Shown: positions 10,116-62,830 of the stretch, piece by piece
Layout: every line of letters starts with the position of its first letter
How positions within the stretch are numbered: position 1 is the first letter of the stretch
NCBI GenBank assembly: GCA_049968255.1
Contig: JBMFRB010000002.1
Location: 288,001-352,000 of the forward strand
DNA: 64,000 nt
Source: Candidatus Sumerlaeaceae bacterium
Lineage (GTDB): Bacteria > Sumerlaeota > Sumerlaeia > Sumerlaeales > Sumerlaeaceae
Reading direction: 5' to 3'
Program-made: the position numbers and the translations under genes
Notes under the pieces: model-generated
What the model was told of the DNA's origin: nothing
Database searches by the model: none
The model's input: only the letters and a program-made list of their open reading frames with translations

Positions 10116-10292
10116 GGAAGCAAGTCTCGGATATCGACGGAGCGATGGTCAAGCAGAGGCGTCGCACCTGCCGTGCGCGGGCTAAAGAGAATCACAGATA
10201 ATTTATCTCCTCTTGCAATTACCAAAATCGGCTAACTTCGCAGCCTCTTGCTGCTGCTTATTAGACACGAACTCGGAGCCGACTGTGGGACA

Positions 10293-12263
10293 TCACCAAA
10301 CGTTGAGCTCTGAGATAGGCCCACTCACAAGTTCATGAAGGACTTTTGACTGCTGGTCCACGTTGCTATTGAAGAGTCCCTTTTTCAGACGAGAGTTGTA
10401 GTAGATATCTGGACTTCCCGTCCCGCCATAGCCCCCCTTCGTAACCAACGTGCCGTAGATCGTTGCATTGCCCGTTCTCGACATGTTACCTGTCACGTAG
10501 AGTAAGCCATCAAGGTAGCAATTCGCAACGAGGCGGCCCGTTGTGTTTCCTGTTGGGTCCGCTGCATATTCGTCTGGGTTTTTCATGAGGACAGTGGGGA
10601 ATGCTCCTCCACCGGAGGTGGACCAGTTCCCGTTGCAGTAAATCATTCCCTTCCAGAAGAACGCATCGCTAGAACCCAATGAGACATTGACCGGCGTCCC
10701 ATCTTTCGTTCCTTGGGGGGTATCGATAAAGAGAATACGATCGGGTAGAGAGGATGTATTGCCGTTCGACGGGACAAGTTTCTTCATAGAGATTTGCGCC
10801 AGGGAGGTGAAGAGCGTATTCCCCGTAGCAACGGTGGTCAGCATCCCCGTGGGCGTCACGTAAAGTGTTTGTCCTTTTTCGTTTACAAAACCGGACCCGC
10901 TTGTCTTGGGACGCACGTAACCATTGTTAGCAATGGCAAAGCTTTTCCAGAAATCGTAGTCGAGTGCGACGTCGAGTGTGTTGGACACTTCCAGGGCAAT
11001 CTGTGGCCAATTCTGGATAAGGGCACCGCTTCCCATGGGATAGAGTGTTTGGCCATCGGGTATTGGATCGAACAGAATTCCGCGCCCCGTATTGGGGAGG
11101 GCCCATTGGCCTGGTTGCGTCCAATTATAGTCCCCCGCAAGCTGTAACTTAGCTGGCACGAGAGGATTGCTCCCACTCTGAAACGCGCCATTGAGCACCT
11201 GGACAAAGAAATCGGTCACGGGTACGCCGTTTAGGCTATCAGGGAAAATGGGTCTTAGGTTGGACCCCACCTTGTTGTAAAGCTTATCAGCTGTCTGCCA
11301 TTTCACCCATTTTTCGTCGCCGACGCCTGCTCCTATGAACTTATTGGCCGCTGCGCTCAGCGTGTAGGGGTCGCCGGGCTTGCTCGGTAGCGTCAATGGG
11401 CTCAACCCTAGCAAGGTGATTGGACCTTTGGAAAGAATTGGCCCCCAGTGGATGTTAAGACTGCTGGTCCCTCCTGCAGTTACGATTGCGCCGGACATGA
11501 GCCCGGCGCTGGAGGCAAGCAAAGGTTGGTTAATTTGATCAACTCCTGGCACAATGAGAATTTTCTGTTGAACAATGCGTGTTTTCGATCGGGGCGGACC
11601 CAAAACTTGCCCTTCAGATTCAATAATGAGCGACACTTTGCGCAAGTCGTCCTTCGAATAGGGACCTGCTGGCGCTAGCCCGGAACTTCGATAGGGAGTC
11701 GTGATCCGAATGCGTGTCACATAAGCACGAGCCCCGTCGCCGCCACTCATAAAGAGTTTCTCTGACGGATTGCTAAACGTGTCATTTCGGAAGTGAACGA
11801 CTTTCCCGTCCGGCCCTGTGAACTCATACAGGACCTGTCGCCCGTCGGGCAGCACTTGACCACTGCCGAAAGAGCTATCGAACGCGGTGAAGTAAGAGAC
11901 AATCTGGTTGACCGTGATGCTATCGAGAAGCGAAACGTTGTCTCGATTAGCGCGCACGTAATTGCTCAATGCAATGGCGCCCGAGGTAATCTTTTCGAGC
12001 TTCTCCCCTATCGACGTGCCAACTTGCTGTTTAGCAATATTGGGGTTCATTAGCCACGTCTTCGTGGCCGCGAGGCCGGACATTGCAGCGTGATAGGCTT
12101 CCTCATAAAGCATTTTGTTCAGCGTGGAGCGAGACAAGTCTCGCACGTGAAGCACCATCACGCCCACCACGAAAAACATCACTCCCACAAGAATGAGGGT
12201 GACGACAAGCGCGGAACCGCGCTCACAAAGTCGCAGGACCCGATGTTGTAATGTCGTTCGCAT
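10293..12263 (-). CDS. Large PilX/GspK-like minor pilin
   Basis: Class III-like N-terminus ERG|SALVVTLIL lacking Glu5, A..AAMSGL helix, IESEG motif, and a Gly-rich C-terminal region. Confidence 0.75.
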   Translation of the reverse strand: MRTTLQHRVLRLCERGSALVVTLILVGVMFFVVGVMVLHVRDLSRSTLNKMLYEEAYHAAMSGLAATKTWLMNPNIAKQQVGTSIGEKLEKITSGAIALSNYVRANRDNVSLLDSITVNQIVSYFTAFDSSFGSGQVLPDGRQVLYEFTGPDGKVVHFRNDTFSNPSEKLFMSGGDGARAYVTRIRITTPYRSSGLAPAGPYSKDDLRKVSLIIESEGQVLGPPRSKTRIVQQKILIVPGVDQINQPLLASSAGLMSGAIVTAGGTSSLNIHWGPILSKGPITLLGLSPLTLPSKPGDPYTLSAAANKFIGAGVGDEKWVKWQTADKLYNKVGSNLRPIFPDSLNGVPVTDFFVQVLNGAFQSGSNPLVPAKLQLAGDYNWTQPGQWALPNTGRGILFDPIPDGQTLYPMGSGALIQNWPQIALEVSNTLDVALDYDFWKSFAIANNGYVRPKTSGSGFVNEKGQTLYVTPTGMLTTVATGNTLFTSLAQISMKKLVPSNGNTSSLPDRILFIDTPQGTKDGTPVNVSLGSSDAFFWKGMIYCNGNWSTSGGGAFPTVLMKNPDEYAADPTGNTTGRLVANCYLDGLLYVTGNMSRTGNATIYGTLVTKGGYGGTGSPDIYYNSRLKKGLFNSNVDQQSKVLHELVSGPISELNVW

Positions 12264-12858
12264 AATTCATGTCTCCCTTGTCTGGGAAGTGGTTCTTAGC
12301 AATGACATCCGTGACAAACTGGCCAAATTGTGGATTCCCCGGATCGTCCAAAATACGAGAAAAACCGCGATAGGTGAAACCAGCAACAAGCGTCAAACGG
12401 TACATAGTTTGGTATTGTATAGCGAAATTTTCCAGATGCTCAAACTTGAAGGTTGGTTTGCCCACTGGATCACCGTCTGCGTCCCAGGTGACCGCATTCA
12501 TATTGTCGTACCAGTGGAGCTCCTTCTTTTTCGAGTGGTAAGCTAGGACACCAGTTGTCACTTCGGTCCCTGAAATCGGCATCGCGACGAGGATCCGCTT
12601 GTACTCCGCAGCTTCGGGCGAGTCCGTAGGAAAGATCGAGTAATATGCTGCCCTGCGTAGCAGGTTTGCTGTCACTTCCGTAGCATTGGATGTGTTAATC
12701 TGACTCAAGACCTGCTCATGGACTCCAACGAAATTGCGGCTTGCGTAATAAGTAAGATAGGCAAGAAAGCTGAAAATAAAGCTGAGGACTGCTATTGCGG
12801 TGACCATTTCCACCAACGTGAAGGCGTGCTTGCCGACCGATGTTAGCCTCTTGTTCAT
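12223..12858 (-). CDS. Prepilin-type N-methylation protein (PilW/GspJ-like minor pilin)
   Basis: KHA|FTLVEMV prepilin cleavage motif with Glu5 and a hydrophobic helix; overlaps both neighbours. Confidence 0.85.
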   Translation of the reverse strand: MNKRLTSVGKHAFTLVEMVTAIAVLSFIFSFLAYLTYYASRNFVGVHEQVLSQINTSNATEVTANLLRRAAYYSIFPTDSPEAAEYKRILVAMPISGTEVTTGVLAYHSKKKELHWYDNMNAVTWDADGDPVGKPTFKFEHLENFAIQYQTMYRLTLVAGFTYRGFSRILDDPGNPQFGQFVTDVIAKNHFPDKGDMNYANDITTSGPATL

Positions 12859-13295
12859 GTTGTGCCGGCCCTTACAAGCGTTGACATGCTTACAGTTTGA
12901 GTTCGAGATGCACTACCAGCTGGAACCCACGTGACAGTGACGCGGCATAGCGACAGGCGGCCCTGCAGTGGGGCGGGGGTGGGATTATCCCAGTTCACTG
13001 TGCCGTCATCATTCACGGGATAAAAATTGACTTCCACATTAGCCAGGATTTCTAATCCCGGTGCGTTGAAAGGTACCAGCGTTTTCACGCCCGCATCAAT
13101 TGATGCATTAGTGTGAACAGCCTCCATTGTCTGGCGAGCATAGTTAAGGGCAGCGAGTCGCTGCTTGTCGAGTTCCATCGCCTGGCGGCTGTAAATGATA
13201 CCACCCACAACCGCAAGCCCCACGATCAGTGTGAGGAGCATCGAGAGGATGACTTCGATCAGCGAAAAACCTTTGTTTCGCTGTTTTCCAATCAT
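12855..13295 (-). CDS. Prepilin-type N-methylation protein (PilV/GspI-like minor pilin)
   Basis: NKG|FSLIEVI motif, A...ME helix and the C-terminal VTVTW strand. Start taken at ATG 13295. Confidence 0.87.
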   Translation of the reverse strand: MIGKQRNKGFSLIEVILSMLLTLIVGLAVVGGIIYSRQAMELDKQRLAALNYARQTMEAVHTNASIDAGVKTLVPFNAPGLEILANVEVNFYPVNDDGTVNWDNPTPAPLQGRLSLCRVTVTWVPAGSASRTQTVSMSTLVRAGTT

Positions 13296-13525
13296 GGCTT
13301 TATCACCCGCTATCACTTTCGTTGTCATAGCGCTGCAAGATTTGTACCGCAGATTTTGCATAGCAATCAAGGATAAAACTCGTCCTACTAAAGCCCGTTT
13401 TTGGAATGACCAGCGGCATACACCGCTTCCATTTTCGGTGAAACGGTTTAGGTAGGAGCCTTCGTTTTATAGAAATGAGGAAGTGGTTGCGCACAATTTT
13501 TGTGCGATAGTGTGTAATTTGCGTC

Positions 13526-21116: not shown

Positions 21117-22214
21117 CTACGCGGCGGGCTGGCCCTCCTCTGTTTGACTCATAAGCGCCATCATTTTCTCACGCATTTCGGCCGGGTAATGGCAGCGCTG
21201 CAACGCGATCTCTCCCGTGATAATGCCGCGCTTATAGAGGTTGAGCAGATAGTCGTCGAGCGTGATCATGCCCTGCTTGGCACTCGTTTGAATTGTTGAA
21301 ATGATACGGTTGACCTTTTTCTCGCGGATGAGGTTTGCCACCGCTGGCGTGTTGTGCAAAATTTCGTACGCGGCGACGCGGCCTTTTCCACTGGCACGGG
21401 GCACAAGTGTCTGCGCGATGATGGTACGAAGCGCAACCGAGAGCACTGCACGGATCTGCTCCTGCTGGTTAACGGGGAAGGCGTCAATAATACGGTTGAC
21501 TGTTTCTGAAGCGGACACAGTGTGCAGTGTGGCAAAAACGAGGTGACCTGTTTCTGCAGCGGTGATTGCGGCTTCCATGGTTTCGAGGTCGCGCATTTCG
21601 CCCACGAGGATTACGTCCGGGTCCTGGCGCAACGCCCCGCGTAGCGCATAGGCAAAACTGGGTGTGTCCACGTGGAGCTCGCGATGGGTGACGATGGCTT
21701 TCTTGTGTGGATGAATGTACTCAAGCGGATCTTCGATGGTGATGATGTGGCAGTATCGCTCGGAGTTGATATAATCGATCATCGTGGCCAAGGTCGTCGT
21801 CTTACCGGAACCAGTCGGGCCAGTCACGAGAACAAGTCCGCGGTGTGCATGAAGCACTTCGATAATTGAGTCGCGGGGCAGTCCCAATTGATCGAAGGTC
21901 AAAATCTTCGACGGAATGAGACGCATGACGATTGAGATGTTGCCACGAGCTCGAAAAACTGCGCAGCGGAAACGCGCCAGATCGCTGTAAGCATAGGCGA
22001 AGTCGGCGCTACCTGTTTCCTGAATCATTTGTTGATAGCGTGGCGGGGTGATCTCGCGCATCAAGCGGTCAGAGTCTTCCGGTGTGATGATATGCGGATC
22101 AACCACGTCGAGGATTCCGTGGAGACGCATCACAGGCGGTTTTCCCACCGAAATGTGAAGGTCTGAAGCTTCGCGTTCCACGACGAGCTTTAGCATCTCG
22201 TTCATTTCAAGCAT
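21117..22214 (-). CDS. pilT: Type IV pilus retraction ATPase
   Basis: ASDLHI, GPTGSGKTTT, LRQDPDVILVGEMRD, TGHLVFATLH and AVANLIRE (AIRNLIRE-like) motifs. Confidence 0.95.
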   Translation of the reverse strand: MLEMNEMLKLVVEREASDLHISVGKPPVMRLHGILDVVDPHIITPEDSDRLMREITPPRYQQMIQETGSADFAYAYSDLARFRCAVFRARGNISIVMRLIPSKILTFDQLGLPRDSIIEVLHAHRGLVLVTGPTGSGKTTTLATMIDYINSERYCHIITIEDPLEYIHPHKKAIVTHRELHVDTPSFAYALRGALRQDPDVILVGEMRDLETMEAAITAAETGHLVFATLHTVSASETVNRIIDAFPVNQQEQIRAVLSVALRTIIAQTLVPRASGKGRVAAYEILHNTPAVANLIREKKVNRIISTIQTSAKQGMITLDDYLLNLYKRGIITGEIALQRCHYPAEMREKMMALMSQTEEGQPAA

Positions 22215-39361: not shown

Positions 39362-40213
39362 TCAGAATCGCACGTTATCGATTAAGCGTGTTTTGCCGAG
39401 AAAAACCGCCGCCGCAACCATCGTGTTTCCGAATTCGACCTGTTTCAGAGGTGCCAGGTTATCAAGGCGAACTATTTCCACATAGTCCACAACGCCCCCC
39501 ATATTTTCTCCGAGAGTGTGCAGAATTTTTTCCCGAAGAATCTGGGAATCCAGGCATCGCCCACTGACGGCCAACTCCTTCGCTTCGGTCAGAGCTCGGT
39601 AAAGCCAGGGCGCTCGCTCTCGTTCTTCGGGCGAAAGGTAAGTATTTCGCGAGCTCATGGCCAGTCCATCAGCTTCGCGAACCGTCTCGACGCCGACGAT
39701 TTCCATAGGAAAGTTCAGGTCAGCTACCATCTTCTTGATGATGAGCAGCTGTTGCGCATCCTTCCAACCGAAGACGGCGAAATCGGGCTCGACGATATTA
39801 AACAGTTTTGCCACGATCGTACAAACGCCCCGAAAGTGGCCTGGACGCGATTTGCCACAGAGTACGGAACCCATAGGCCCAGGATCTACAGTCACCTGCA
39901 TATCCGACGGTGTGATGAGTGCGGCTGATGGGTAAAATAAGATTGTTCCGCCAGCTTCATCGATGACCTTTTTGTCATGCTCGATATCGCGCGGATAGCG
40001 CTCAAAATCTTCATTCGGTCCGAACTGCAAGGGATTGACGAAGACCGAGACAACGACTACAGGGGCAAGCTCCGCCGCTTTTCGAATGAGCGTGGCGTGC
40101 CCCTCGTGCAAATACCCCATCGTGGGCACAAAGGCAATAGCCTGATTAGACCTTTTAGCCGCCTGTAAGGTCGAGCGCAGCAATCCAATTGTATCATAAA
40201 TCTCTAGTTTCAT
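39362..40213 (-). CDS. panC: Pantoate-beta-alanine ligase
   Basis: VPTMGYLHEGH, VNPLQF, RPGHF, GLAMSSRN and RLIDN motifs. Start taken at ATG 40213. Confidence 0.97.
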   Translation of the reverse strand: MKLEIYDTIGLLRSTLQAAKRSNQAIAFVPTMGYLHEGHATLIRKAAELAPVVVVSVFVNPLQFGPNEDFERYPRDIEHDKKVIDEAGGTILFYPSAALITPSDMQVTVDPGPMGSVLCGKSRPGHFRGVCTIVAKLFNIVEPDFAVFGWKDAQQLLIIKKMVADLNFPMEIVGVETVREADGLAMSSRNTYLSPEERERAPWLYRALTEAKELAVSGRCLDSQILREKILHTLGENMGGVVDYVEIVRLDNLAPLKQVEFGNTMVAAAVFLGKTRLIDNVRF

Positions 40214-40336
40214 AAAATCCTTGCTAGGCAAAGCCACGTTGTTGCTCAAGCGTATATGAGACGCGCGTTCAGCAGGGGGACAAACACAATCTGATGGTAT
40301 TTGACATTTTACGGAGGAGGGCGGATCCGAAGTCCT

Positions 40337-42871
40337 ATGACTCAGAAACACAAAATCGTGTGCGTACTTTTCTTAACCGCGGTTTTTTTTGTTTCGGCAA
40401 GTGGGCATGCCGACAAACTTGTTTTTCGTACGGGTAGTGTGATCGAGGGGATAATTCTTGAGGAAACAGCGGACCATATTCTTTTTCGCGATCGCAGCGG
40501 AGAAGTCCGCAGCTATAGCAAAACGTTGTTGCAGTCCGTTCAGCGCGAGGAGTCCGCGCTTGGCACCAGTGTGGCGGATGTATTGCAGCGTGCTAGGAGT
40601 TATCGCCAAGCAGGCAAATTCGACGCCGCGCTGGAGGTTCTCGTGCAAGCAGCCGCGAATGCGCCTGGAAGTGCCAACGCTTTGTCTGAGGAATTTCAGG
40701 CGACGCTCTTCCAGCTCGATGCGGCGCTCAAGGAAGTGTATCCGCGCGATAAAAGACGAGCTCGCGAACTTCTTGTCACAAGACAGAAAAGCTTGCAAAG
40801 CTCTGGGACTTTGCTTCTCGTCCCGGCCAGGGCAACTCTCGAGTCATGGCGAAAAGAAACCAGCAAATCACTAGCTGCGATAGACTATGAGTTGGCGGTG
40901 TCATTCTCGCAGCAGCCTAATAAACTTCCACAAATTCGGGAACTACTCCTCGAGGCTATTGCACTCGACCCACAAAACGCGAATGCACATCTTTATCTCG
41001 CGGATACGGCCCTGGCACTGGACGATATCGCATTGGCTATGCGCGAATATAAAACGGCGTTGGGATTTTCGGGAACAAGTACAGAATTTCGTCAGCGTGC
41101 CGAACAAGGCTTGCAGGTAGCTCAAGCTCGATTAGCAGCTCGGCAAACACCAGCTCCGGTGCGCACGCAACTCGAGTTGCAATCCCCACCAGGTACCCAA
41201 TCGCTCTCGCCACAGCCCGAGGCTCAGCCGTCGACAAAGTTTGCCGTCTGGCTGGCTATCGTGGAGCAGCGTCTGGAAAAAACTGGCATCATGGCTTATG
41301 TTCGCCCGGTCTGGCGCGAAATAAGTAGTGGAGAATACAATGCGTACCTTATTGGGGTCCCCTCTTTTGTTTTTGTGTTTTGGCTTCTCCCTTACTGGTT
41401 CGTCCGCTACCGCTCGAAAAATGGCGATGTGCTGGCAGCAGAGCTTCGTGAGCCCGCCAAGAAAATTGGTTTGGTGGCTTTACTGCTTTACCTCGGGCGT
41501 GCGTTGAAATCGGCAAAACCGAAAAACCGCTGTCCCTTTTGTAACAAGAGCCTCGATAAATTGGATGCTTACACGGATCTCAACTTCTACGCCTGCCCGC
41601 ACTGCCATGAACCGATAACGCCAATTTATGATCTCAAGGATTACATAGACCATCTCGTCAAACAGATCGAGCTCCAACTCAAGCACTCGAAAGAAAGCGT
41701 CATCGCGGGCGTCGAACGTGATCTCATGCTGAAGCTCGTGCGCGCGGTTATAACACTAGCAGTGCGCAGACGCGCCAGCGATTTGCATTTGGAGACCGAG
41801 GTCGACGGCGCCAAGCTCCGTGTCCGCATCGACGGCATGATGTACGATTTCATGCATTTACCGCGCAGCGTGTCGTTGGCGTTTATTTCGGCTTTGAAAA
41901 TCATGGCGAACCTCGACATCACCGAACGGCGAATTCCGCAGGACGGCAAGATCGGCATGTGGATAGATAAGGTAGATCTTGACCTACGCATCAACACCAG
42001 CCCCGCAGCCATGGGAGAAAAGGTCACTATTCGAATTTTAAATCCGAAAAGCATTGCTGTAGATCCGGTGCGGCTTGGCCTGGAGGGTGAGAATCTTGAA
42101 CGATTTGAACGAGCGATTCATCGTCCGCACGGCATGATTATCGTCACTGGGCCGGCTGGCTCAGGCAAGTCTACCACGCTTTACGTGGCACTGAACCTCA
42201 TCAACACAGGGGAAAAGAACATTGTGACCTTAGAGGACCCCATCGAGTACCAGATCAAAGGGGCGTCGCAAATGCAGGTCAACCCTGCTACCAATTTTAC
42301 TTTTGCCACGGGACTGCGTTCAATCCTTCGCCAGGATCCCGATGTGATTATGGTCGGCGAGATTCGGGATTCTGAAACAGCCGAGATTGCGGTCGAAGCT
42401 GCTTTGACTGGGCACTTGCTGCTGACAACTCTTCACACGATTGATTCGGCCACAGCGTTCGCGCGCATGGCAGATCTTGGTGTGGACACATCGCGGATGG
42501 CAAGTGCGCTCATTTGCATCATTGCCCAACGTCTCGTCCGCACGATCTGCCCGAACTGTAAGAAACCTTACAAACCAAAACGAGAGCTGCTTGAGCAACT
42601 CAACGTCGTCGAAGTACCACGGGATTTCACTTTCGTGCATGGGGCAGGCTGTGCCGAGTGCATGAATACAGGCTACTGTGGCAGAATGGGATTGTTTGAA
42701 TTCCTCATGCCCGATGACCAGATGCGCGAGGTGCTCGAAGGGGCCCCGCCTGTGTCAGTTATCAGAGAACTCTCGCGGAAAAAAGGATTTGCTTCGCTGA
42801 AAGAAGAAGGTGTGCGTCGAGTGCTCAGCGGACTCACAACTGTCGAAGAAGTTTTGCGGGTGACAAGCTGA
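40337..42871 (+). CDS. PilB/GspE-family secretion ATPase with an N-terminal signal peptide, TPR region and TM segment
   Basis: RASDLHLE, PQDG, GPAGSGKST, LRQDPDVIMVGEIRD, TGHLLLTTLH and CPNC..CAEC motifs; N-terminal half atypical. Confidence 0.9.
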   Translation: MTQKHKIVCVLFLTAVFFVSASGHADKLVFRTGSVIEGIILEETADHILFRDRSGEVRSYSKTLLQSVQREESALGTSVADVLQRARSYRQAGKFDAALEVLVQAAANAPGSANALSEEFQATLFQLDAALKEVYPRDKRRARELLVTRQKSLQSSGTLLLVPARATLESWRKETSKSLAAIDYELAVSFSQQPNKLPQIRELLLEAIALDPQNANAHLYLADTALALDDIALAMREYKTALGFSGTSTEFRQRAEQGLQVAQARLAARQTPAPVRTQLELQSPPGTQSLSPQPEAQPSTKFAVWLAIVEQRLEKTGIMAYVRPVWREISSGEYNAYLIGVPSFVFVFWLLPYWFVRYRSKNGDVLAAELREPAKKIGLVALLLYLGRALKSAKPKNRCPFCNKSLDKLDAYTDLNFYACPHCHEPITPIYDLKDYIDHLVKQIELQLKHSKESVIAGVERDLMLKLVRAVITLAVRRRASDLHLETEVDGAKLRVRIDGMMYDFMHLPRSVSLAFISALKIMANLDITERRIPQDGKIGMWIDKVDLDLRINTSPAAMGEKVTIRILNPKSIAVDPVRLGLEGENLERFERAIHRPHGMIIVTGPAGSGKSTTLYVALNLINTGEKNIVTLEDPIEYQIKGASQMQVNPATNFTFATGLRSILRQDPDVIMVGEIRDSETAEIAVEAALTGHLLLTTLHTIDSATAFARMADLGVDTSRMASALICIIAQRLVRTICPNCKKPYKPKRELLEQLNVVEVPRDFTFVHGAGCAECMNTGYCGRMGLFEFLMPDDQMREVLEGAPPVSVIRELSRKKGFASLKEEGVRRVLSGLTTVEEVLRVTS

Positions 42872-42885
42872 TCGGCGCGCCCAGA

Positions 42886-44085
42886 CTAGTCCATTGGCCA
42901 GTTGGGATCGCGGCTGAGGGCTTTCTCATCGGGAAAGCCGAGAACTTCGTAGTAGAGTTCCAGATATTGGCGAACGATTTTTCTTTCGCTGAAGAGTCGT
43001 TGTGCGCGTAAGCGTCCAGCACGTCCAAGACGGCTGGCTAATTCGCGGTCAGCAAAGATTCGCGTGACAGCTTCTGCCAAGCAGCCAATGTCGCCAACGG
43101 GACAAAGAAAGCCCGTTTTTCCGTGCTCAACCACTTCGCTGAGTCCACTGCCTTCAGTGCCAACAACAGGAACGCCACTAGCCATGGCCTCTAGTGCAGC
43201 CATTCCAAAAGATTCGTACTCACTTGGCAAAATGAGTGCATCGGCTAAACTATAGAAGTCTTCGATATTTGGATATTTACCTAAAAAGATAACATCCTTC
43301 GAGAGCTTAAGGCGATGAGCAAGTTTTTCCGCATGGGGACGTTCCGGACCGTCGCCTATAAGAATGAGCTTTGATGGAACCGCTTTCCGCACGATGTTGA
43401 ATGCTCCCACAACGTCGCGCACTCGCTTGACTGGCCGAAAATTCGACACGTGGAGAAGGACCTTCTCCTGCAGTGAGGCAAAGCATTCGCGAGACAGGCG
43501 TCTTGGACCTGGCCGAAAACGTGAGCAATCTACGAAATTGTAAATGACCGTCGGTGGCGTGTTTAGGGCGAATCCTTTTTCTGCACGTTGGGCAAGCCAA
43601 GCCGAGACGGCGGTTATTGCGTCGCTCTGCTCAAGAGCCCACTGCGAGAGCTCATAGAAGCTTGTTGTTCTGCCTACTAAGGTAACGTCCGTGCCATGAG
43701 CAGTCGTGATGAGCTTCGTGCGCGTGTTTTTTGTTACAAGCCGCGCCAAAGCTGCGACAATTGCGTGCGGAACAACATAGTGGGCATGAAGAATGTCGAG
43801 ATCTTCTTGCCGAATGACCTTGGCAATGTGCGAAGCCAGGTCGAGGCCCATCATCGGCGCTGGAAAGACGTCATAGTGGAATTGCTCCACCTCGTGATAA
43901 AAGAGGTTTTCCATGAACTCGGCCTGCTGGAGACGGAACGGGAGTTGGGGACTGAGAAAATGAACGCGATGGCCAAGACGCGCGAGTGCCTTGCCAAGTT
44001 CCGTTGCAATGACACCAGACCCGCCATGAGAACCGAAACATGCAATGCCAATGTTCAGCAAACGTCCTTTGCGGCGAACGGCCAT
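42886..44085 (-). CDS. bshA: N-acetyl-alpha-D-glucosaminyl L-malate synthase (bacillithiol pathway)
   Basis: GGSGVIATELG, HAHYVVPHA, HGTDVTLVG, HVSNFRPVKR and ESFG motifs. Confidence 0.85.
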   Translation of the reverse strand: MAVRRKGRLLNIGIACFGSHGGSGVIATELGKALARLGHRVHFLSPQLPFRLQQAEFMENLFYHEVEQFHYDVFPAPMMGLDLASHIAKVIRQEDLDILHAHYVVPHAIVAALARLVTKNTRTKLITTAHGTDVTLVGRTTSFYELSQWALEQSDAITAVSAWLAQRAEKGFALNTPPTVIYNFVDCSRFRPGPRRLSRECFASLQEKVLLHVSNFRPVKRVRDVVGAFNIVRKAVPSKLILIGDGPERPHAEKLAHRLKLSKDVIFLGKYPNIEDFYSLADALILPSEYESFGMAALEAMASGVPVVGTEGSGLSEVVEHGKTGFLCPVGDIGCLAEAVTRIFADRELASRLGRAGRLRAQRLFSERKIVRQYLELYYEVLGFPDEKALSRDPNWPMD

Positions 44086-46934: not shown

Positions 46935-46981
46935 CGTCGATCTCGCTCCACAACGTATTGACGAGGGTTCGAAATCATGAG

Positions 46982-49417
46982 ATGAGTGGCCGAGACGACA
47001 ATGCAAAAGCGCGGGCACCGTGCTCGACTTCTCTATTTTTCGAATGGGGCGCCTCTGCGCTCGGCATTGCTGTGGGATGTATTGTTCCGTTGTGGCCTGG
47101 GAGAGTGCTTTCCACAGCTTCGCTTCCCGGTGCTCCGAGATCGGATTTTGAATACTACTTTTTCCCACTGCGATGTCATCTCGCGCGCGTTTGGGGCAGT
47201 GGCATCATCCCGTTTTGGAATCCTCACCTGTTCTGCGGCTATCCGGTCATTGAATCTGTTCAGAGCGCCGTGCTTTATCCCTTCAACGCACTGGGGCTAA
47301 ACGTGCCGGCCGCTGAAGCCATTGTCTATCTCACCGCGGCGCATCTGGTTCTCAATTATCTAACCTGGTGGTTGGCACTACGCAAAGGCTTCGGATTTTC
47401 CTGTGCCACAAGTTCTGTCACTGCCGCTCTCGCGAATGTCTCGGCTTTGCTACCTTACCGATTTTTTGCTGGCCATCTGACAATCATTTTCGCTTTTCCC
47501 TGGATTCCACTCCTTGGCGCTGCTGCGTATCAACTTGTCCGACAGAGATCCTTTGTGTTGCGCTGGTGGGGCTGGGCCGTTGTGTGCTCTTCACTTGTTA
47601 TCACTGCTGGGGCACCACAGTTTGCTTTATTTGCTTTTTATGGCGCCATTGTACTCGCCACAGCCAAGGCGATATGCGGAAAAAGCGCCTACCATTTGTC
47701 GGGCGCTGTAGGAGCTTTGTTTCTCGGTGGGCTTCTGGCTTTGCCCCAAATCGCGGCCACACTCGATTACATTCCCTTTTCTGCGCGCCAGGGAAGCTGG
47801 ACCGCTCCTTACGATTCTGCCGGTTTTTGCGCCGCCGTTCTGGAAACCCTTTTACCTGCCCCGCTAGGCGACGGTGTTACCGAGATGCATATGAACGAGC
47901 GCGGCGTCTGGGACACCGCCGGGTACTTTGGGGCGATAGCTCTAGTTGCTGGATTTTTAGAGGCAGGATGCTTTTTCAAACGGGGGTTAGCAAAAAGTGA
48001 TCCACGCGCCTTCGCTGCGCTGATGCTGTTGTGCTTCGCGATTTATATCATGAGCGGTGGTTACTTGCCTGGTTTCAGCGGAATCCGCGAAAGTCAACGC
48101 GCCCTCGTTCTTTTACATTTTAGCGCATTGCTTTTCGTTGCCCTTTTTCTCGACTCGATGAGGAAGCTTTCAAGGACAAGGCTCCTTCGCCGACGTATTT
48201 GGGGGTATTATTTTGCGATTTTTCTTTCTGCCGTTGCTGCGCTCATCGTTTTTCAGCAGCTTTCTGCGGCGCAATTTTCCCCGATTTTGTCGTGGATTGT
48301 TCATCGCTGTCTTGGACAACTTACTTTTTCATCCCGGGAGTTACCTGACACGGCAACCTATTTGTTCCTCACTTTCCAGCGCAGCCTTAATTGGGTCGTT
48401 GGCTGGCTGGCTCTTGCAGCTCTCGCGACAACGGTTTCGCTTTATCGGCCCCAGACCGGATGGCTGATTTTAGCAATTCTCATGCTTCTCGATCCGTTGC
48501 TTCTTCACTACGATGCTTATCAGTGTAGAACACGAATGCGCGACATGGGGTATCCACTTGGTCTAGAAAACACTCTTGCTTCAGTCGCCGAGCAGCGTAA
48601 AAAACAACGTCTACCGCCCCCACGTTTTGTGTTTCCTACGAGCCATACGAATATTGCCCAGTGCACGGATGGAGTTTACGATGCGGGTGGCTACGACCCC
48701 TTGATGCCTGCGCTGGCACTGGCTCGCCGAGGCTGGATTACTGGCAGTGTTTCTTTCGAGGCGCGACAGCACGCAACCTTCGCAGCGCTTGGAGTGTGCG
48801 GAGTTCTCGATGAACCCAAACATCAGCCAGAGTTTGTGCCCCCACCTCAAAGGCTCATCACTCTGCGACACGTGCCTTGCGCGAACGGTGCAGCGGAACT
48901 CGTCACTGAGGTCGGCCTGCAACCACGATCATACTTGTTCGGTCCTGTCGATGGGACGACCCACACTGTGGAGAGTGATCAGTTGCTTATCGAAATACGG
49001 CGCTGGCTCAGAAAGTCTGATCTTGCGACGGCACAAAACCTTTCCACGTCATCTGTCCGTGGAAAAGTTCGCTGGTATCAGACACCGAATCCGAATCACA
49101 TATGGTTGAGTTGTTTCAGTGAAGTCCCTCAGCTTCTGGTTGTTCACACCACCTGGCTACCGGGGTGGCGAGCAACAGTGGAAAGTGGTCGTGGCGTGCG
49201 ATTCCAGAAGCTATTGCGCTGTAATGGTTGGATGATTGGATGCCCTGTGCCAGCGGGGTATTCCTTCGTCAAACTTGATTATGCACCTCGCTCATGGCAT
49301 CTGTCTGTGTTTCTGTCGCTTACAGTACTTACGGCGGTGATCGTTTTCGTAGGGGGGCGCACTTCAGCTCGAACGCGAGCAGTGAACGCGAGGACAACTA
49401 GTACTCCCAGGGCTTAA
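46982..49417 (+). CDS. YfhO-like polytopic membrane protein (putative GT-C glycosyltransferase)
   Basis: D..YYFFP, PFWNPHLFCGYP, YP, many TMs, GYDPL, and C-terminal PGWRA...Y.P plus a terminal TM. Confidence 0.78.
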   Translation: MSGRDDNAKARAPCSTSLFFEWGASALGIAVGCIVPLWPGRVLSTASLPGAPRSDFEYYFFPLRCHLARVWGSGIIPFWNPHLFCGYPVIESVQSAVLYPFNALGLNVPAAEAIVYLTAAHLVLNYLTWWLALRKGFGFSCATSSVTAALANVSALLPYRFFAGHLTIIFAFPWIPLLGAAAYQLVRQRSFVLRWWGWAVVCSSLVITAGAPQFALFAFYGAIVLATAKAICGKSAYHLSGAVGALFLGGLLALPQIAATLDYIPFSARQGSWTAPYDSAGFCAAVLETLLPAPLGDGVTEMHMNERGVWDTAGYFGAIALVAGFLEAGCFFKRGLAKSDPRAFAALMLLCFAIYIMSGGYLPGFSGIRESQRALVLLHFSALLFVALFLDSMRKLSRTRLLRRRIWGYYFAIFLSAVAALIVFQQLSAAQFSPILSWIVHRCLGQLTFSSRELPDTATYLFLTFQRSLNWVVGWLALAALATTVSLYRPQTGWLILAILMLLDPLLLHYDAYQCRTRMRDMGYPLGLENTLASVAEQRKKQRLPPPRFVFPTSHTNIAQCTDGVYDAGGYDPLMPALALARRGWITGSVSFEARQHATFAALGVCGVLDEPKHQPEFVPPPQRLITLRHVPCANGAAELVTEVGLQPRSYLFGPVDGTTHTVESDQLLIEIRRWLRKSDLATAQNLSTSSVRGKVRWYQTPNPNHIWLSCFSEVPQLLVVHTTWLPGWRATVESGRGVRFQKLLRCNGWMIGCPVPAGYSFVKLDYAPRSWHLSVFLSLTVLTAVIVFVGGRTSARTRAVNARTTSTPRA

Positions 49418-50240
49418 GAATGTCTTTCCACGTTCGTGGAGGCTTGCGAAGCTCGTCCTCTATCATAAGCTCACAGGCACGGCGCCTATAGTTTTTTAGC
49501 GGCTGACCGTTGCCGAGCTCACTTTTCGCTTGTCGAAGCTTTGCCAAAAACTCGTCGGCCAGAACGATGCCGATGCTAGATGTCGCGCTCCAAACAGGGA
49601 GGATGAAGATCGATCCGAGAACTGTAAGAGATCCGATTGCACTGATCATTGCAAAAAAGAAAAAGGCGCTTATCCATAAGGACGGCAAAACAACCAGCGA
49701 GATGAGTGCAGTTCGCATCGAGGCGAAGAAACCAAGCCTATCAGGCGCCACTGCGACCGTGCCAAAGAGGGGCATGAGATAAACGAACCAAAAGATCATA
49801 AGATAACAAAATAAAATTACCACAACTAAACTTGCAAATCCCCACGGTTTGCCCAAACGACTCGCCTGAACTGCGTAAAAGTAAATATTGGACGAGACAA
49901 GCAAGGTGCCTAGGCCGGCAAAGGATGTATACATGACCGCGGCTTTGACTCTACCCATGGAGGGAAAAAGATAGGCGGCGGGATGAATCGGCTTCTCGTG
50001 GGCGATGCACTCCCCTAAACTGAAAAGCATTGCGACACTATAGATCAGCCATGCTCCCGCCAGACCTCCAATAATCCACCTTAGGCTCGGGATTCGGACA
50101 AGGAGAAAAAGTCTTTCAGCGTCTACCAGCAAAAATCCGAGCAGCCAGAAACCCGCTGCTGCAATTAATCCGGAAATAGTAAGCGTCCCAAGGTAGTCGT
50201 AGAGTCCCCAAAACAAGCGATGAAAAAGAAGTTTTATCAT
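49398..50240 (-). CDS. Hypothetical integral membrane protein
   Basis: About 6 hydrophobic segments, basic C-terminal R.WKD.LKPWE tail, 4-bp overlap with the murA stop. Confidence 0.75.
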   Translation of the reverse strand: MIKLLFHRLFWGLYDYLGTLTISGLIAAAGFWLLGFLLVDAERLFLLVRIPSLRWIIGGLAGAWLIYSVAMLFSLGECIAHEKPIHPAAYLFPSMGRVKAAVMYTSFAGLGTLLVSSNIYFYAVQASRLGKPWGFASLVVVILFCYLMIFWFVYLMPLFGTVAVAPDRLGFFASMRTALISLVVLPSLWISAFFFFAMISAIGSLTVLGSIFILPVWSATSSIGIVLADEFLAKLRQAKSELGNGQPLKNYRRRACELMIEDELRKPPRTWKDILKPWEY

Positions 50241-52524: not shown

Positions 52525-52592
52525 GTTTTTTCACCTTTTGCGATTGCAACCGAAAGCATGATTACCATCGGGTGAAGGGCAAAGAAGCGTCA

Positions 52593-54872
52593 ATGAAAAG
52601 AAAGCAGCGAACGCGCAGTCTCTTGTTTCCTCAAGCACTGGAGCAGCGGGGCATCATGGGACTTTTGATTGTCGGTTGCGCACTTGCTTTCATTTACGCT
52701 CCATTGCTCGATCCCTCCCGTTTTATCAGTGGAATGGACTTTTTGAACCTCGTCTATCCTCAGGTCGCCTATGCACGACAAGTTCTGGTGAGCGGTACAG
52801 TCCCTCTCTGGAACTGGTATACGTGGGGAGGGTCACCACTTCTTGCCGCTTGGCAGAGTGCAATCTTTTACCCGCCAACCTGGCTCTGCATGGCAATTGG
52901 ACTTCCCTATGGCTTACAGCTCTCCATTTTTGCTCACCTTGTGTTGGCCGCCTGGGGGGCAAAACGCTTTGCCGAGAATATGTTTGGCGCCGGAAGCCTC
53001 GGCTCGCTTTACGCGGGTCTTGTCTATGCGGGCAGCGCTTTTTTCTTGGGGCACATCGAACAGGTCAACTCAGTGGCTACGCTGGCATGGACGCCTTGGG
53101 CACTCGACGCTTTGTTTCGCACCATCGCAAACCGTCGTGGATATCTCCAGCTAGCAGTTGCAGTCCTCATGGGATTTCTTGCGGGCCATCCTCAGCATCT
53201 GCAGCTCGCCCTTTTCTTTGGCGTCGTCGGCGGAGCGAGTTTTCTGCTCCTTTCAAGAATCAAGCCGTGCACTCACCTTTTCCTTCCCGGGCGTGCGATT
53301 TGGTCGAACGCGTGTTTAGCAGGAGCTGCGGTGGGCCTTGGAATTGTTGCCAGTGCTCCGCAATTATTCCCGTCCTTAGAACTTGCTGCCTGGTCGGAAC
53401 GCGTTTGGCCTTTCGACGACCCATTCACCCCGCATTTCCGCTGGCGCCACTTGCTTGCTTTCGTAGTTCCGAGGTTTTTCAATAAACTCGCTGGGACAGA
53501 GGGTCAACCTGTGGGGTTTACGGAGGAGGGGGTCTACTGTGGAATCTTGTCGCTGCTACTTTGCGGCGTCTATGTCTGTCTGGCACGGCGCCACACGCTC
53601 CTTGCCCGATCATTCCCGATTTGGTTGCTGATGGTTGTGGGGGCTTTTCTGTTTTCGCTCGGTCCTGAAGGCGGCCTCGCCCCTATCGTTTGCCACACAA
53701 TTCCCGGCTTCGCTAAGCTCCGGGGCTCGGCACGCGCTCTGAATGTCGTGGTGTTGCTGCTCGGTTGTGGCGCGGGCACTGGCTTTTCGATCCTTGCACG
53801 GCGGTTTTCTGACGGAGCGCGTTTTTCCCTTTTCCTTGGAGCTATGGCTTGCACCACAGCGGAGCTCGCCTGGACGCACCAACCAGAGTTAGCCTCGCTC
53901 TTTGTGTCGAGAGAGGTACTCACTGCGGATAAACCGCGTTTTGGCGAGGTAAAACCTTCCCTATGGTCGCCGCGCCGCGTTTATCGGTTTATGGCTCACG
54001 ACAGTGATCTTTACCTTGATCATCGTGCAACGGCAGTTTCAGAGCGGTTCGTGCGAATGCAGCCAAACCTTAATATGATCACAGGCGTTGCTGTGATTGA
54101 CGGTTACGAAGAGGGATTATTGCCGCCTTGGCCCTATGGCAATTTTCTCCGAAAGTTTAATCGCAATCTTCGCAATGAGACGCTCGACGCCACTTTGCTT
54201 GCTCTCATGGGCGTTGAATATGTCATCTCGGAATATCCGGCAAAATTTGACAACGACCGCTGGGAGCTCAAGCAACGATGGACAGACCGTGCACCAATGG
54301 GAAGCGTTTACACTTTATGGAAAACTCGTGTTCCGACGGCATGGTTTTACGACTGGAAAACACTTGTTACAGCCAATGATGTGGCTTCCAAGGGAGAGCA
54401 ACATCCACTTCGCGACATCCTGTCCGACGAGCGGACGGCCAATGGGCAACCTCAGCGAACACCCCCCGGTCGACTGCTTGTCGAACACCCATTGTCCAAG
54501 TATTCATCTTCAAGTTTTGCATTGGCTGCACGGCAAGCCTCACTAAGAGTCCGCGCGATTGCGCCAAACTCCCTTCTGCTGGAGGTGCGGGACACACATT
54601 CTTCCAGCACGCGCGTGATTTATAGTGGGGTGCTCTGTCCTGGCTGGAAATGGTGCCTTTGCAAACATCAGCTTGTGCCAGTCGTTTACAGTGGAGCATT
54701 TCGGCCCTTTTCCCTTGTCGAGCTTCCTCCTATTGAAAACAGGCAGAACCTTCGCCTGTGCTACGCCCCGTTTTCCTACCGGTTCGGATGTTTCTCAGGG
54801 CTCGCTGGTGTGCTGGTCATGGTGATTGTTGCATTGAGTGTCCGCCTGAAAAGGGAACTAGTCCAGTGTTGA
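52593..54872 (+). CDS. YfhO-like polytopic membrane protein (putative GT-C glycosyltransferase)
   Basis: DFLNLVYP, PLWNWYTWGGSPL, FYPP, GHPQ, DGYE and PGW...YAP motifs plus a terminal TM. Confidence 0.8.
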   Translation: MKRKQRTRSLLFPQALEQRGIMGLLIVGCALAFIYAPLLDPSRFISGMDFLNLVYPQVAYARQVLVSGTVPLWNWYTWGGSPLLAAWQSAIFYPPTWLCMAIGLPYGLQLSIFAHLVLAAWGAKRFAENMFGAGSLGSLYAGLVYAGSAFFLGHIEQVNSVATLAWTPWALDALFRTIANRRGYLQLAVAVLMGFLAGHPQHLQLALFFGVVGGASFLLLSRIKPCTHLFLPGRAIWSNACLAGAAVGLGIVASAPQLFPSLELAAWSERVWPFDDPFTPHFRWRHLLAFVVPRFFNKLAGTEGQPVGFTEEGVYCGILSLLLCGVYVCLARRHTLLARSFPIWLLMVVGAFLFSLGPEGGLAPIVCHTIPGFAKLRGSARALNVVVLLLGCGAGTGFSILARRFSDGARFSLFLGAMACTTAELAWTHQPELASLFVSREVLTADKPRFGEVKPSLWSPRRVYRFMAHDSDLYLDHRATAVSERFVRMQPNLNMITGVAVIDGYEEGLLPPWPYGNFLRKFNRNLRNETLDATLLALMGVEYVISEYPAKFDNDRWELKQRWTDRAPMGSVYTLWKTRVPTAWFYDWKTLVTANDVASKGEQHPLRDILSDERTANGQPQRTPPGRLLVEHPLSKYSSSSFALAARQASLRVRAIAPNSLLLEVRDTHSSSTRVIYSGVLCPGWKWCLCKHQLVPVVYSGAFRPFSLVELPPIENRQNLRLCYAPFSYRFGCFSGLAGVLVMVIVALSVRLKRELVQC

Positions 54873-61693: not shown

Positions 61694-62830
61694 GTGCTGC
61701 GATACGTGCGACTAAAAATCCTCGACCGACTTCTTCTCAGCGAATTCTGGCTTGCTTTCTTTGCAACCTTGGCGTTCTGCGCACTTCTCCTCATAGTGGC
61801 GACGATCTTTGAAAAGTTTCAGGACATCATTGAGAACGACGCCCCTTTGAACAAAGTGGTGCTCTACTTTCTGTGCAGCCTGCCGTTCAAACTGATCCAA
61901 GTCATTCCCATGGTGTGTGCCTTAGCGGTTCTATTCTCGGTAGGCGGCCTTGCGCGAAACAACGAAATCCTCGCGTTTCTCACCAGCGGCGTGCATAATC
62001 TTCGCATTCTCGCACCAGTGGCCGCCTCGGGAGCTGTGATTATGGTCGGAGTCTTTGTTGTGAATGAGTTTTTCGTAGCACGGCTTGAGCAAGAGGCGCG
62101 TTACTTGGAACGGCGTTACATCGAGGCCAAGAGTGAAGCGAGGCTTGTCACTCGGCGCGACATTTTTGTTCGCGGTATGGGGAATCGCTTTTACCTCATG
62201 AAGATGTACGATACTCGCGAAGGCAGGATGTATAATCCACAAATTGTGGACATGACCGAGGACTACTCGGCCCTGCGCCAACGGATTGATGCGCGTGAAG
62301 CCAAGTTGATAGCCGACAAGCGGGGTGAGCAGCGGTCTGAATGGCAATTGTCCCAACCCCGAATATGGAGCTTTGACGAGCGGGGAAATCTCACGAATTT
62401 TGAACAGATCACTGGAGAGCGGCGCGTCTATCTAGAACCTGACTTGTCTGTGATTTTAGGGCAAAAGAAAAAGCCGGAGGAAATGAATTTCTTTGAATTG
62501 CGCCGGCACATTCAAATTCTTGCCGAGCGTGCCCAGCCGGTCTTTGATTACGAGACGGACCTCTATCGCAAACTAACCTTACCCATATCGATCCTCGTTG
62601 CTATGACCATGGCTTTCTCCTACGCGGTGCGAACCCGTGCAGGTAACGCAACAAGCGCGTTTGGCTACGGTCTCACGTGGGTCATTGGCCTGTACGCAGC
62701 GAACGCGGTTTTTGGGGCGTTAGGGCACTCTGGAGTTATTCCCCCATTCTCTGCAGCCTGGCTCCCTATTTTTCTCTTTGCAGGCGCGGCTGTCGTCCAC
62801 GTCAGGAAAAGTTATCGGTGGTATGCTTGA
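61694..62830 (+). CDS. LptF/LptG-family LPS export permease
   Basis: ILDR, L.RNNEI.A..TSG, NE..., a periplasmic jellyroll region, PEEM and AAWLP motifs. Confidence 0.9.
   Translation: MLRYVRLKILDRLLLSEFWLAFFATLAFCALLLIVATIFEKFQDIIENDAPLNKVVLYFLCSLPFKLIQVIPMVCALAVLFSVGGLARNNEILAFLTSGVHNLRILAPVAASGAVIMVGVFVVNEFFVARLEQEARYLERRYIEAKSEARLVTRRDIFVRGMGNRFYLMKMYDTREGRMYNPQIVDMTEDYSALRQRIDAREAKLIADKRGEQRSEWQLSQPRIWSFDERGNLTNFEQITGERRVYLEPDLSVILGQKKKPEEMNFFELRRHIQILAERAQPVFDYETDLYRKLTLPISILVAMTMAFSYAVRTRAGNATSAFGYGLTWVIGLYAANAVFGALGHSGVIPPFSAAWLPIFLFAGAAVVHVRKSYRWYA

Follow-up and report, generated by a model that had tools for sequence, protein, structure and literature searches.

We describe here a gene on the forward strand of a 64,000-nucleotide stretch of Candidatus Sumerlaeaceae genomic DNA ('the window' throughout), at positions 40337..42871, and propose that it encodes a bitopic inner-membrane motor of the PilB/GspE extension type that carries its own membrane adaptor, the latter standing in for the role played elsewhere by GspL or by PilM/N. 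Taken as a whole, this is the explanation towards which we lean, with moderate confidence. As to its parts, we are highly confident in the domain architecture and predicted topology of the protein, and regard the proposed role of its N-terminal half as a built-in adaptor as evenly poised.

In the list of open reading frames (ORFs) for the window the gene is a single ORF of 844 codons, running from an ATG at 40337. A TTG at 40301, 36 bases upstream, provides an alternative start that would add 12 residues to the protein; we have taken the ATG as the start because relatives (see below) open with a leader of ~20-30 residues, placed before the conserved motif 'A-D-x-L/I-x-F/L-K-x-G' with which the mature part of those proteins begins. 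The parts of the gene and its product, as read from the translation, from family alignments and from models predicted by AlphaFold2 (AF2; confidence given as predicted local distance difference test, pLDDT), are listed here, with tetratricopeptide repeat abbreviated to TPR, transmembrane to TM, Kyte-Doolittle hydropathy to KD, and Eisenberg mean hydrophobicity and hydrophobic moment to <H> and muH.

40337..42871, + strand: whole coding sequence, 844 amino acids plus stop, for a predicted membrane-anchored PilB/GspE-type ATPase (P0001; ORF list and translation)
40337..40411, + strand: signal-peptide-like leader, residues 1-25 (K4 and K6 in the n-region, hydrophobic core at 7-25, G-H-A before D26)
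40412..40546, + strand: five-strand beta domain, residues 26-70 (AF2 strands 26-30, 35-43, 47-52, 57-61 and 65-69)
40571..41146, + strand: TPR-like alpha-helical domain, residues 79-270, predicted periplasmic (Pfam TPR matches at 82-116 and 202-243; AF2 helices)
41153..41239, + strand: P/Q-rich disordered linker, residues 273-301 (pLDDT <50 over 273-302; gappy and variable in alignments)
41240..41338, + strand: two juxtamembrane helices, residues 302-334, predicted to lie on the periplasmic side (AF2 helices 302-316 and 319-330)
41339..41410, + strand: predicted single TM helix, residues 335-358 (core 338-356: KD 1.92, <H> 0.85, muH 0.08)
41411..41515, + strand: basic loop and amphipathic helices, residues 359-393, including a hydrophobic patch at 378-391 (AF2; G378 invariant)
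41516..41632, + strand: four-Cys zinc ribbon (C399/C402/C420/C423, in CPFC...CPHC) and I-x-P-x-Y motif, residues 394-432 (family alignment)
41633..41770, + strand: connecting helices leading into the N2 domain, residues 433-478 (AF2 helices 433-450 and 457-477)
41771..42046, + strand: N2 domain of the PilB/GspE core, residues 479-570 (Pfam T2SSE; Foldseek matches to PilF/PilB/GspE)
42047..42868, + strand: C-terminal ATPase domain, residues 571-844 (Walker A, EDPIE, Walker B/VGEIRD, His box and tetracysteine)
42149-42175, + strand: Walker A, residues 605-613, GPAGSGKST (alignment to Vibrio cholerae GspE and motif scan)
42548-42661, + strand: tetracysteine C738/C741/C772/C775 (motif scan and alignment to V. 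cholerae GspE)

The identity of the motor core is clear. Pfam T2SSE (PF00437) matches residues 463-841 with an E-value of 2.5e-120 and is covered over model positions 7-370 of 370; the core also aligns essentially without gaps to V. cholerae GspE over ~380 residues (E 5.7e-106), and a Foldseek search of its predicted structure returns PilF, PilB and GspE, with TM-scores on the target (TMt) of up to 0.95. The motifs GPAGSGKST, EDPIEY, DPDVIMVGEIRD and TGHLLLTTLHT all align with those of V. cholerae GspE and are invariant in the nine closest relatives; we take the names of these nucleotide-binding motifs (Walker A, Asp box, Walker B and His box) from the family literature. Each Cys of the tetracysteine is conserved in 90% or more of the 56 members of the family alignment. 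Judged by this homology, the core should form a hexamer and hydrolyse ATP.

The same core does not, on the other hand, place the protein within either of the two best-known classes. The NCBIfam model for GspE (TIGR02533) scores 474.5 bits against a cut-off of 630.25, matching at model positions 105-486 only, and that for PilB (TIGR02538) scores 442 bits against 675.65, at positions 170-562 only; because both equivalog models match the core alone, and both below cut-off, the sequence is assignable neither to GspE nor to PilB proper. An N1, T2SSE_N or MshEN domain gave no match in Pfam at E-values up to 1. It is the TM helix and zinc ribbon, as one module, that occupy the place of N1/MshEN in the canonical enzymes. 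The four ribbon cysteines (C399, C402, C420 and C423) are invariant in 56 of 56 aligned members, and no Pfam family reaches its cut-off on the ribbon (DZR, E 0.028).

Topology was computed from hydropathy and the positive-inside rule across 54 relatives. In the AF2 model, the hydrophobic segment forms one long and isolated helix, spanning residues 335-361, and the basic cluster RYRSK sits at ~357-361, just past the predicted TM helix. A strongly hydrophobic 19-residue window (KD 1.9-3.1) is conserved in the 51 of 54 relatives that reach a threshold KD of at least 1.6, and two residues of the helix are close to invariant across the 56 members: W349 (91%) and P352 (95%). Lysine and arginine are more frequent in the 15 residues that follow the TM segment than in the 15 that precede it in 50 of the 54 relatives (two are equal and two reversed), with means of 3.7 and 1.5 respectively. 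From this charge bias, along with the N-terminal leader, the single TM segment, and the presence of an ATPase and a Cys-zinc ribbon, both of which need the cytoplasm, we infer that the TPR-like domain lies outside and the ATPase inside: residues 26-334 external, a single span, and the remainder of the chain cytoplasmic. That prediction is identical whether the leader is cleaved or kept as an uncleaved signal anchor. The second hydrophobic patch, at 378-391, covers ~14 residues, has an <H> of 0.42 and a muH of 0.44, and falls within a set of amphipathic AF2 helices at 365-391. A second crossing of the membrane here is improbable, and we rejected it, the patch being too short and amphipathic.

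The leader itself was read from the sequence as having recognisable n-, h- and c-regions, with a mean KD of 2.07 over residues 7-25 and the small residues G-H-A before D26. Relatives end in a similar way: a comparable N-terminal hydrophobic core is present in 45 of the 54, mostly ending A-x-A/G before a conserved D. We also considered a lipoprotein, and rejected it as no Cys follows the leader. The beta domain has a weak NCBIfam match to Lepto_7_Nterm, under the cut-off of that model (E 1.6e-6). AF2 models built from the family alignments have a mean pLDDT of 90.4 for the full-length protein and of 90.6 for the N-terminal part alone, with the helices of residues 79-270 above 90. Pfam TPR_14 passes on this helical domain (25.4 bits against a cut-off of 23.5), four other Pfam TPR models stay under their cut-offs (among them TPR_16/19/11 at 202-243), and Foldseek with the N-terminal model finds generic TPR structures only, designed and natural, with E-values from 3e-5 and TM-scores of 0.2-0.3. 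We name the domain 'TPR-like' for these reasons: one Pfam model passes, the others fail and the Foldseek TM-scores are low. The cytoplasmic domain of LapB is one of the weak Foldseek matches; an assignment as a pilotin or as BamD was considered and is unjustified, the Foldseek matches being generic. The ESM Atlas, queried with residues 25-335, likewise returned generic TPR clusters only (scores up to 0.91), gave no usable match for residues 300-480, and, as with Pfam and Foldseek, produced no known ligand-binding fold for the N-terminal half. The best match in a sequence search of the PDB with residues 1-460 was no better than E 0.26. Within the juxtamembrane helices and the residues flanking them, G317, R323, W326, E328, S331 and G332 are invariant in the nine closest relatives.

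A preliminary description of this gene, made from the letters alone, had proposed much of this layout, and its parts have held up well. The signal-peptide-like leader and small beta domain that it saw correspond to the hydrophobic stretch at 7-25 and to five AF2 strands at 26-69; its TPR-like helices and P/Q-rich linker are recovered by TPR_14 and by the drop in pLDDT at 273-301; its TM-like stretch and second short hydrophobic patch are those at 338-356 and 378-391, the latter amphipathic; and its extra CPFC..CPHC ribbon and intact PilB/GspE core agree with the invariant cysteines, the T2SSE match and the retention of every core motif.

We then have the question of whether leader, TPR-like domain, anchor and motor truly belong to one gene. 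When the non-ATPase part alone (residues 1-460) served as the query, eight full-length relatives emerged, 826-861 amino acids long and all with T2SSE; homologues spanning both the N-terminal part and the ATPase, which the preliminary description had suggested looking for, do therefore exist. A genome scan with the ribbon motif, over one genome per species, returned 21 loci, of which eight are true relatives, all from Candidatus Sumerlaeota (formerly BRC1). The same fused gene is seen in all eight. In five, a single ORF of ~846-872 residues runs unbroken from leader to ATPase; two are truncated at the end of a contig, and in the eighth (L003) codon 42 is an in-frame TAA. Conservation of this kind in independent assemblies is far beyond chance, and the fusion is real and not a chimera. 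The earlier proposal of a bitopic motor, with an exported TPR domain, one span and a cytoplasmic PilB/GspE core, is hence supported both by the computed topology (the charge bias in 50 of 54, the leader and the single TM segment) and by the retention of the fusion in eight of eight loci; a leader and a TM segment are predicted, the TPR-like domain and the ATPase are placed on opposite sides of the membrane, and the homologues are not split in two.

Locus L003 merits a brief description of its own. The gene lies at 8855-11452 of that locus, from a Sumerlaeaceae metagenome-assembled genome (MAG), and its TAA, at nucleotides 8978-8980, separates the leader and first strands from the rest of the gene; the deposited protein (P0084, 800 amino acids, named 'TadA') starts past it. 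The stop could be a sequencing error or the mark of a pseudogene.

An exhaustive, profile-free search of 1.84 billion representative sequences with residues 1-460 extends the family considerably, with 72 matches at E-values up to 1e-3 and 36 at up to 1e-10, mostly proteins of 800-1000 residues. Most of these relatives have a hydrophobic leader, a variable outside part, a strong TM segment, a CxxC...CxxC ribbon and a Walker A motif. In the 56-member alignment, T2SSE is present in all 56 and G378 is invariant, and the mean frequency of the top residue rises from 0.21-0.30 in the outside part, through 0.36-0.38 in the TM helix and loop, to 0.56 in the ribbon and 0.59-0.62 in the ATPase. Because conservation climbs in this way from the outside part to the ribbon and ATPase, the TM helix, ribbon and ATPase are the constant unit of the family, and the outside domain its fast-evolving part. 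In three members (P0051, P0065 and P0073) the ribbon and ATPase are preceded by 5-7 predicted TM segments, which take the place of leader and periplasmic domain; Pfam gives no match for the N-terminal part of these proteins. A search with the N-terminal part of a distant member, P0044, found three relatives.

When the ATPase part is used as the query, members of the family are listed at 57-93% identity, and the next best among the matches listed are proteins of ~1010 residues with two Walker A motifs, at 36-43%. Ninety-eight proteins are new in this list: 63 with TM segment, ribbon and Walker A, 34 tandem ATPases and one that is unclear. The two-Walker-A proteins (~34, of ~1000-1030 amino acids, in the range P0095-P0163, 36-43% identical to the query core and some with T2SSE_N) look like tandem double T2SSE ATPases. 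A quick maximum-likelihood tree was built from the ribbon to the C-terminus, with 54 of the 56 alignment members, the eight loci, three tandem ATPases and a PilT from the window as root; P0047 and P0048, which failed the motif filter, and canonical PilB/GspE sequences were left out. On this sampling, the family stands apart from the tandem ATPases with support of 92 in the Shimodaira-Hasegawa-like approximate likelihood ratio test (SH-aLRT), and the eight Sumerlaeota loci fall within one subclade of 29 rows (SH-aLRT 93). In public databases the relatives go by the names 'GspE/PulE family protein', 'ATPase, T2SS/T4P/T4SS family', 'TadA' or 'hypothetical', and full-text searches, made outside the subscription journals, turned up no account either of a membrane-anchored PilB/GspE or of this family.

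Synthesising these observations, we propose a model for how the protein might be arranged and might work. The chain would be exported by Sec, with probable cleavage of the leader, such that residues 26-334 come to lie in the periplasm: the beta domain, the TPR-like domain, the flexible P/Q linker and the two juxtamembrane helices. Residues 335-358 would then cross the membrane once, and the basic loop, amphipathic helices, four-Cys ribbon and ATPase (N2 and C-terminal domains) would follow in the cytoplasm. By homology, the ATPase would act as a hexamer, its hydrolysis of ATP driving a platform protein of the PilC/GspF type encoded elsewhere, and the output of the motor would be the assembly of a type IV pilus or of a pseudopilus like that of the type II secretion system (T2SS). 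ATP-driven assembly of such a filament is, we suggest, the default function, since the core is that of a complete extension-type motor. The N-terminal half would serve as a built-in adaptor or stator that keeps the motor permanently at the membrane, with the TPR-like domain reaching out to components of the machine in the periplasm or outer membrane, or to the cell wall; in the hexamer, the platform protein would be ringed by six TM helices and, beneath the membrane, six ribbons, with six flexible TPR arms projecting into the periplasm. We read adaptor and motor as one polypeptide because N1 is absent and the chain itself appears to cross the membrane into a periplasmic domain. The near-invariance of W349, P352, G378 and the ribbon suggests specific contacts in or under the membrane, as opposed to a passive anchor.

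The background to this proposal is that, in the canonical enzymes, N1 or MshEN docks on a separate bitopic adaptor (GspL, or PilM with PilN), and that models of PilB and GspE have a soluble ATPase ring which is recruited and held by such separate membrane adaptors. A membrane-integral motor would be a natural experiment on how the ring stays still while it drives the platform protein, and it bears also on how a cytoplasmic motor is aligned with periplasmic and outer-membrane parts. We might go further, and speculate that the motor is fused to its own stator, the hexamer being fixed by its six TM helices, with its six periplasmic TPR arms tied to outer parts of the machine or to the wall, and working without separate GspL/M or PilM/N/O proteins. 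This stronger version we offer tentatively, and think it rather unlikely; were it true, the ATPase ring need not move relative to the envelope, and the platform protein alone would turn, and the TM-plus-ribbon module would define a separate, previously unnamed branch of secretion ATPases with exchangeable outside domains. More generally, the family marks a compact module of TM helix and four-Cys ribbon in the place of the well-studied N1/MshEN domains, and offers a handle on the envelope machines of the Sumerlaeota, an uncultured bacterial phylum.

Comparison with known systems helps to define what is familiar here and what is not. GspE of the T2SS, for example V. cholerae EpsE (PDB entries 4kss/4ksr and 1p9r), shares with the present protein its N2 and C-terminal ATPase domains, along with Walker A, Asp box, Walker B, His box and tetracysteine (Foldseek probability 1.00). 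EpsE differs in having the GspL-binding N1 domain, where our protein has a leader, ~310 residues predicted to be periplasmic, a TM helix and the additional ribbon; nor does a gsp operon surround the present gene, either in the window or in the flanks of relatives that were scanned. The best structural matches to the core are Geobacter PilB (5tsh/5zfr) and Thermus PilF (5oiu), with TMt of 0.91-0.95, root mean square deviations of ~2 A, 42-44% identity and E-values of 1e-100 to 1e-103. Those proteins are soluble, with N-termini of the GSPII/MshEN type, whereas the present protein has neither and is predicted to be integral to the membrane.

The closest parallel in layout is perhaps the GspE-GspL pair: a cytoplasmic ATPase, one span and a periplasmic domain, here apparently combined in one polypeptide. 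Chains of 4pht, the GspE-GspL complex with N1 bound to the cytoplasmic domain of GspL, are among the matches to the core in both the PDB sequence search and Foldseek. TcpT with TcpR, BfpD with BfpC, and PilB with PilM/PilN are further cases of a soluble ATPase held by a separate bitopic adaptor. The likeness is one of arrangement, and no similarity to GspL, GspM, PilN or PilO was found in the N-terminal half (Pfam at E-values up to 1, NCBIfam at up to 0.01). Membrane-anchored ATPases do exist in related settings, in VirD4/TraG (the coupling protein of type IV secretion systems) and ExeA/GspA (of the Aeromonas T2SS), which are FtsK-like or AAA+ enzymes; ExeA has a cytoplasmic ATPase, one TM segment and a periplasmic peptidoglycan-binding domain. 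These resemble the present protein, by analogy, in tethering an ATPase through a TM segment and, for ExeA, in contacting the wall or secretin through a periplasmic domain, but they belong to other ATPase families, have another domain order and show no homology that we could see to the N-terminal half. The TPR pilotins (PilW/PilF and Tgl) also place a periplasmic TPR domain in a type IV filament machine, and NCBIfam gives weak matches to them at residues 155-253 (type_IV_pilW, E 2.2e-4 and 20.9 bits; Tgl, E 8.9e-3); these scores are far under the respective cut-offs (154 and 225 bits), the lipobox Cys is absent here, and the likeness is that of generic TPRs. The protein is, in sum, a member of the T2SSE superfamily that departs from GspE and PilB in equivalog scores, N-terminal domains, predicted solubility and linkage to a platform gene. 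This membrane-anchored design, recurring in Sumerlaeota, seems not to have been studied before.

Several points weigh against the reading of a membrane-held filament motor, and should be set out together. No pilC/gspF, secretin or pilM/N/O gene adjoins the gene in the window, or its relatives in the flanks of loci L002-L005, L007 and L008, so that ATPase homology is what ties the protein to a filament machine; those flanks also differ by lineage. Conservation is lowest in the periplasmic part, which would suit a spacer and a fast-evolving binding surface equally. The topology is a computation from hydropathy and charge, and in a few distant relatives the second patch is strongly hydrophobic (KD of 2.89 in P0035, 2.08 in P0027 and 2.17 in P0048). 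Finally, the protein lies under the equivalog cut-offs of both GspE and PilB. It might be supposed, given the first of these points, that the ATPase has been recruited to a different process, such as the export of surface polysaccharide or other envelope material, its TPR domain then acting as those of polysaccharide export proteins do. An exopolysaccharide (EPS) polyprenyl glycosylphosphotransferase is encoded one gene upstream in the window, L002 and L003, a family 4 glycosyltransferase (GT4) downstream in the window and L002, and a Wzy_C-TPR protein and sugar epimerase upstream in L004, L007 and L008, and in the window and all five of these loci no filament gene is adjacent. We nevertheless consider such a role improbable: these neighbours are divergent or convergent and vary by lineage, panC, PmbA/TldD and transketolase genes intervene, such that their presence may be chance, the GT4 of the window scores as BshA, an enzyme of thiol biosynthesis, and the core keeps every feature of an extension ATPase, the tetracysteine included. 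We know of no PilB/GspE-class ATPase that powers polysaccharide export.

A different view of the periplasmic part, in line with that of the preliminary description, would make the motor a sensor-coupled one, in which the TPR domain binds a ligand or variable partner (a polysaccharide or surface cue, for example) and switches the ATPase through the TM helix. The near-invariance of W349, P352 and G378 goes beyond what a passive anchor needs, and the periplasmic part varies by subfamily, and is even swapped for 5-7 predicted TM segments in P0051, P0065 and P0073, in the manner of many sensor modules. We think this unlikely, if worth bearing in mind, as the matches are to generic TPRs and to no ligand-binding fold, TPRs usually bind proteins, the disordered P/Q linker between TPR domain and juxtamembrane helices would be a poor transmitter of signals, and no regulatory partner genes are linked in the flanks scanned; a structural tether or adaptor is favoured, on indirect grounds, over a ligand sensor. 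That the hydrophobic segments are not membrane elements at all, leaving a cytoplasmic or peripheral protein whose TPR domain recruits cytoplasmic partners, might be argued from the computed nature of the topology, from the frequency of TPR domains in cytoplasmic proteins and from the LapB cytoplasmic domain among the weak Foldseek matches. It is very improbable, however, in view of the conservation of the hydrophobic window (51 of 54), the basic cluster on the ATPase side (50 of 54), the leader with an AxA-like end (45 of 54) and the isolation of the helix in the AF2 model. An assembly chimera or decaying pseudogene, with two genes misjoined at ~41200-41600, would find some encouragement in the low complexity of the P/Q linker at the junction and in the in-frame TAA near the 5' end of L003, and is scarcely credible: the order of the parts is shared by eight of eight independently assembled Sumerlaeota loci and by dozens of metagenomic proteins, the TM helix and ribbon on the side of the junction are highly conserved, and G+C is flat. 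The check for a chimera called for by the preliminary description is in effect answered, as the same fused gene is present in independent assemblies and no homologue is split into two genes. The bitopic motor with a built-in adaptor is, then, the reading that we retain.

The immediate neighbours of the gene in the window are as follows.

39362..40351, - strand: panC, divergent from the ATPase gene, its longest ORF overlapping the ATPase start
42886..44085, - strand: bshA-like GT4 glycosyltransferase gene, convergent (TIGR03999, 454 bits against a cut-off of 273.7)

The bshA-like gene ends 14 bp from the stop codon of the ATPase gene. With panC divergent on one side and bshA convergent on the other, the ATPase gene is probably transcribed alone. 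This agrees with the earlier statement that it stands by itself, without a pilC/gspF neighbour; of the 47 ORFs in the window that reach 150 amino acids, none is of the T2SSF type, and we find none in the flanks of L002-L005, L007 and L008 either. A scan of 40000-43100 for promoters and terminators gave counts that were not above those in shuffled sequences. G+C is flat across the ATPase region, at 0.52-0.53, and for that reason a horizontal-transfer island, also considered, was rejected. The longest panC ORF (329 amino acids, with a GTG start) overlaps the start of the ATPase gene by 15 bp. Since the panC ORFs in L002 and L003 are of 283 amino acids, the true start is probably further inside the longest ORF; an ATG before 'MKLEIY', which by our own reading is a candidate, would give an intergenic region of ~120 bp.

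The surroundings of the gene in the window and in its relatives can be grouped thus.

Window, L002 and L003: panC and an EPS sugar transferase (EPS polyprenyl glycosylphosphotransferase, one gene upstream) upstream; a GT4 glycosyltransferase gene downstream in the window and L002
L004, L007 and L008: PmbA/TldD, a Wzy_C-TPR protein and an epimerase upstream; transketolase downstream
L005: two PilT-family genes downstream

The Wzy_C-TPR protein has ~945 amino acids, with a Wzy_C (O-antigen ligase-like) domain and C-terminal TPR repeats, and is encoded on the - strand at L004 3086-5932, L007 4420-7257 and L008 4203-7055, two genes upstream of the orthologue and beside the sugar epimerase. The two PilT-family genes of L005 (11530-14190, - strand) are adjacent, lie directly downstream and converge on the orthologue; one of their products, of 528 amino acids, has an N-terminal extension of ~180 residues.

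Elsewhere in the window there are genes that a filament machine might use. A PilT-family gene at 21117-22214 (- strand), for a retraction ATPase of the PilT/PilU type (TIGR01420, 455.5 bits against a cut-off of 319.1), stands alone amid unrelated housekeeping genes. Two pilin-like genes with N-methyl motifs lie at 12223-12858 and 12855-13370 (- strand), the latter with a weak match to ComGE; they adjoin a 656-amino-acid ORF at 10293-12263 (- strand), which has a hydrophobic N-terminus and no family match, to form a cluster of three ORFs at 10293-13370. This cluster, ~27 kb from the ATPase gene, may be a set of minor pilins or pseudopilins. Given these PilT-family and pilin-like genes, and the type IV pilus twitching genes that Fang et al. 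2021 (PMC8092238) report for all of their Sumerlaeota MAGs, a filament machine for the motor to serve is plausible, though unlinked to it by gene order.

Among other ORFs in the window, two large ones on the + strand, at 46958-49417 (819 amino acids) and 52572-54872 (766 amino acids), and two on the - strand, at 7624-9012 (462 amino acids) and 49398-50240 (280 amino acids), match nothing in NCBIfam or Pfam at the thresholds applied. The BshA match (bacillithiol pathway) at 42886-44085 coexists in this genome with LptG, encoded at 61694-62830 (+ strand), which implies an outer membrane with export of lipopolysaccharide.

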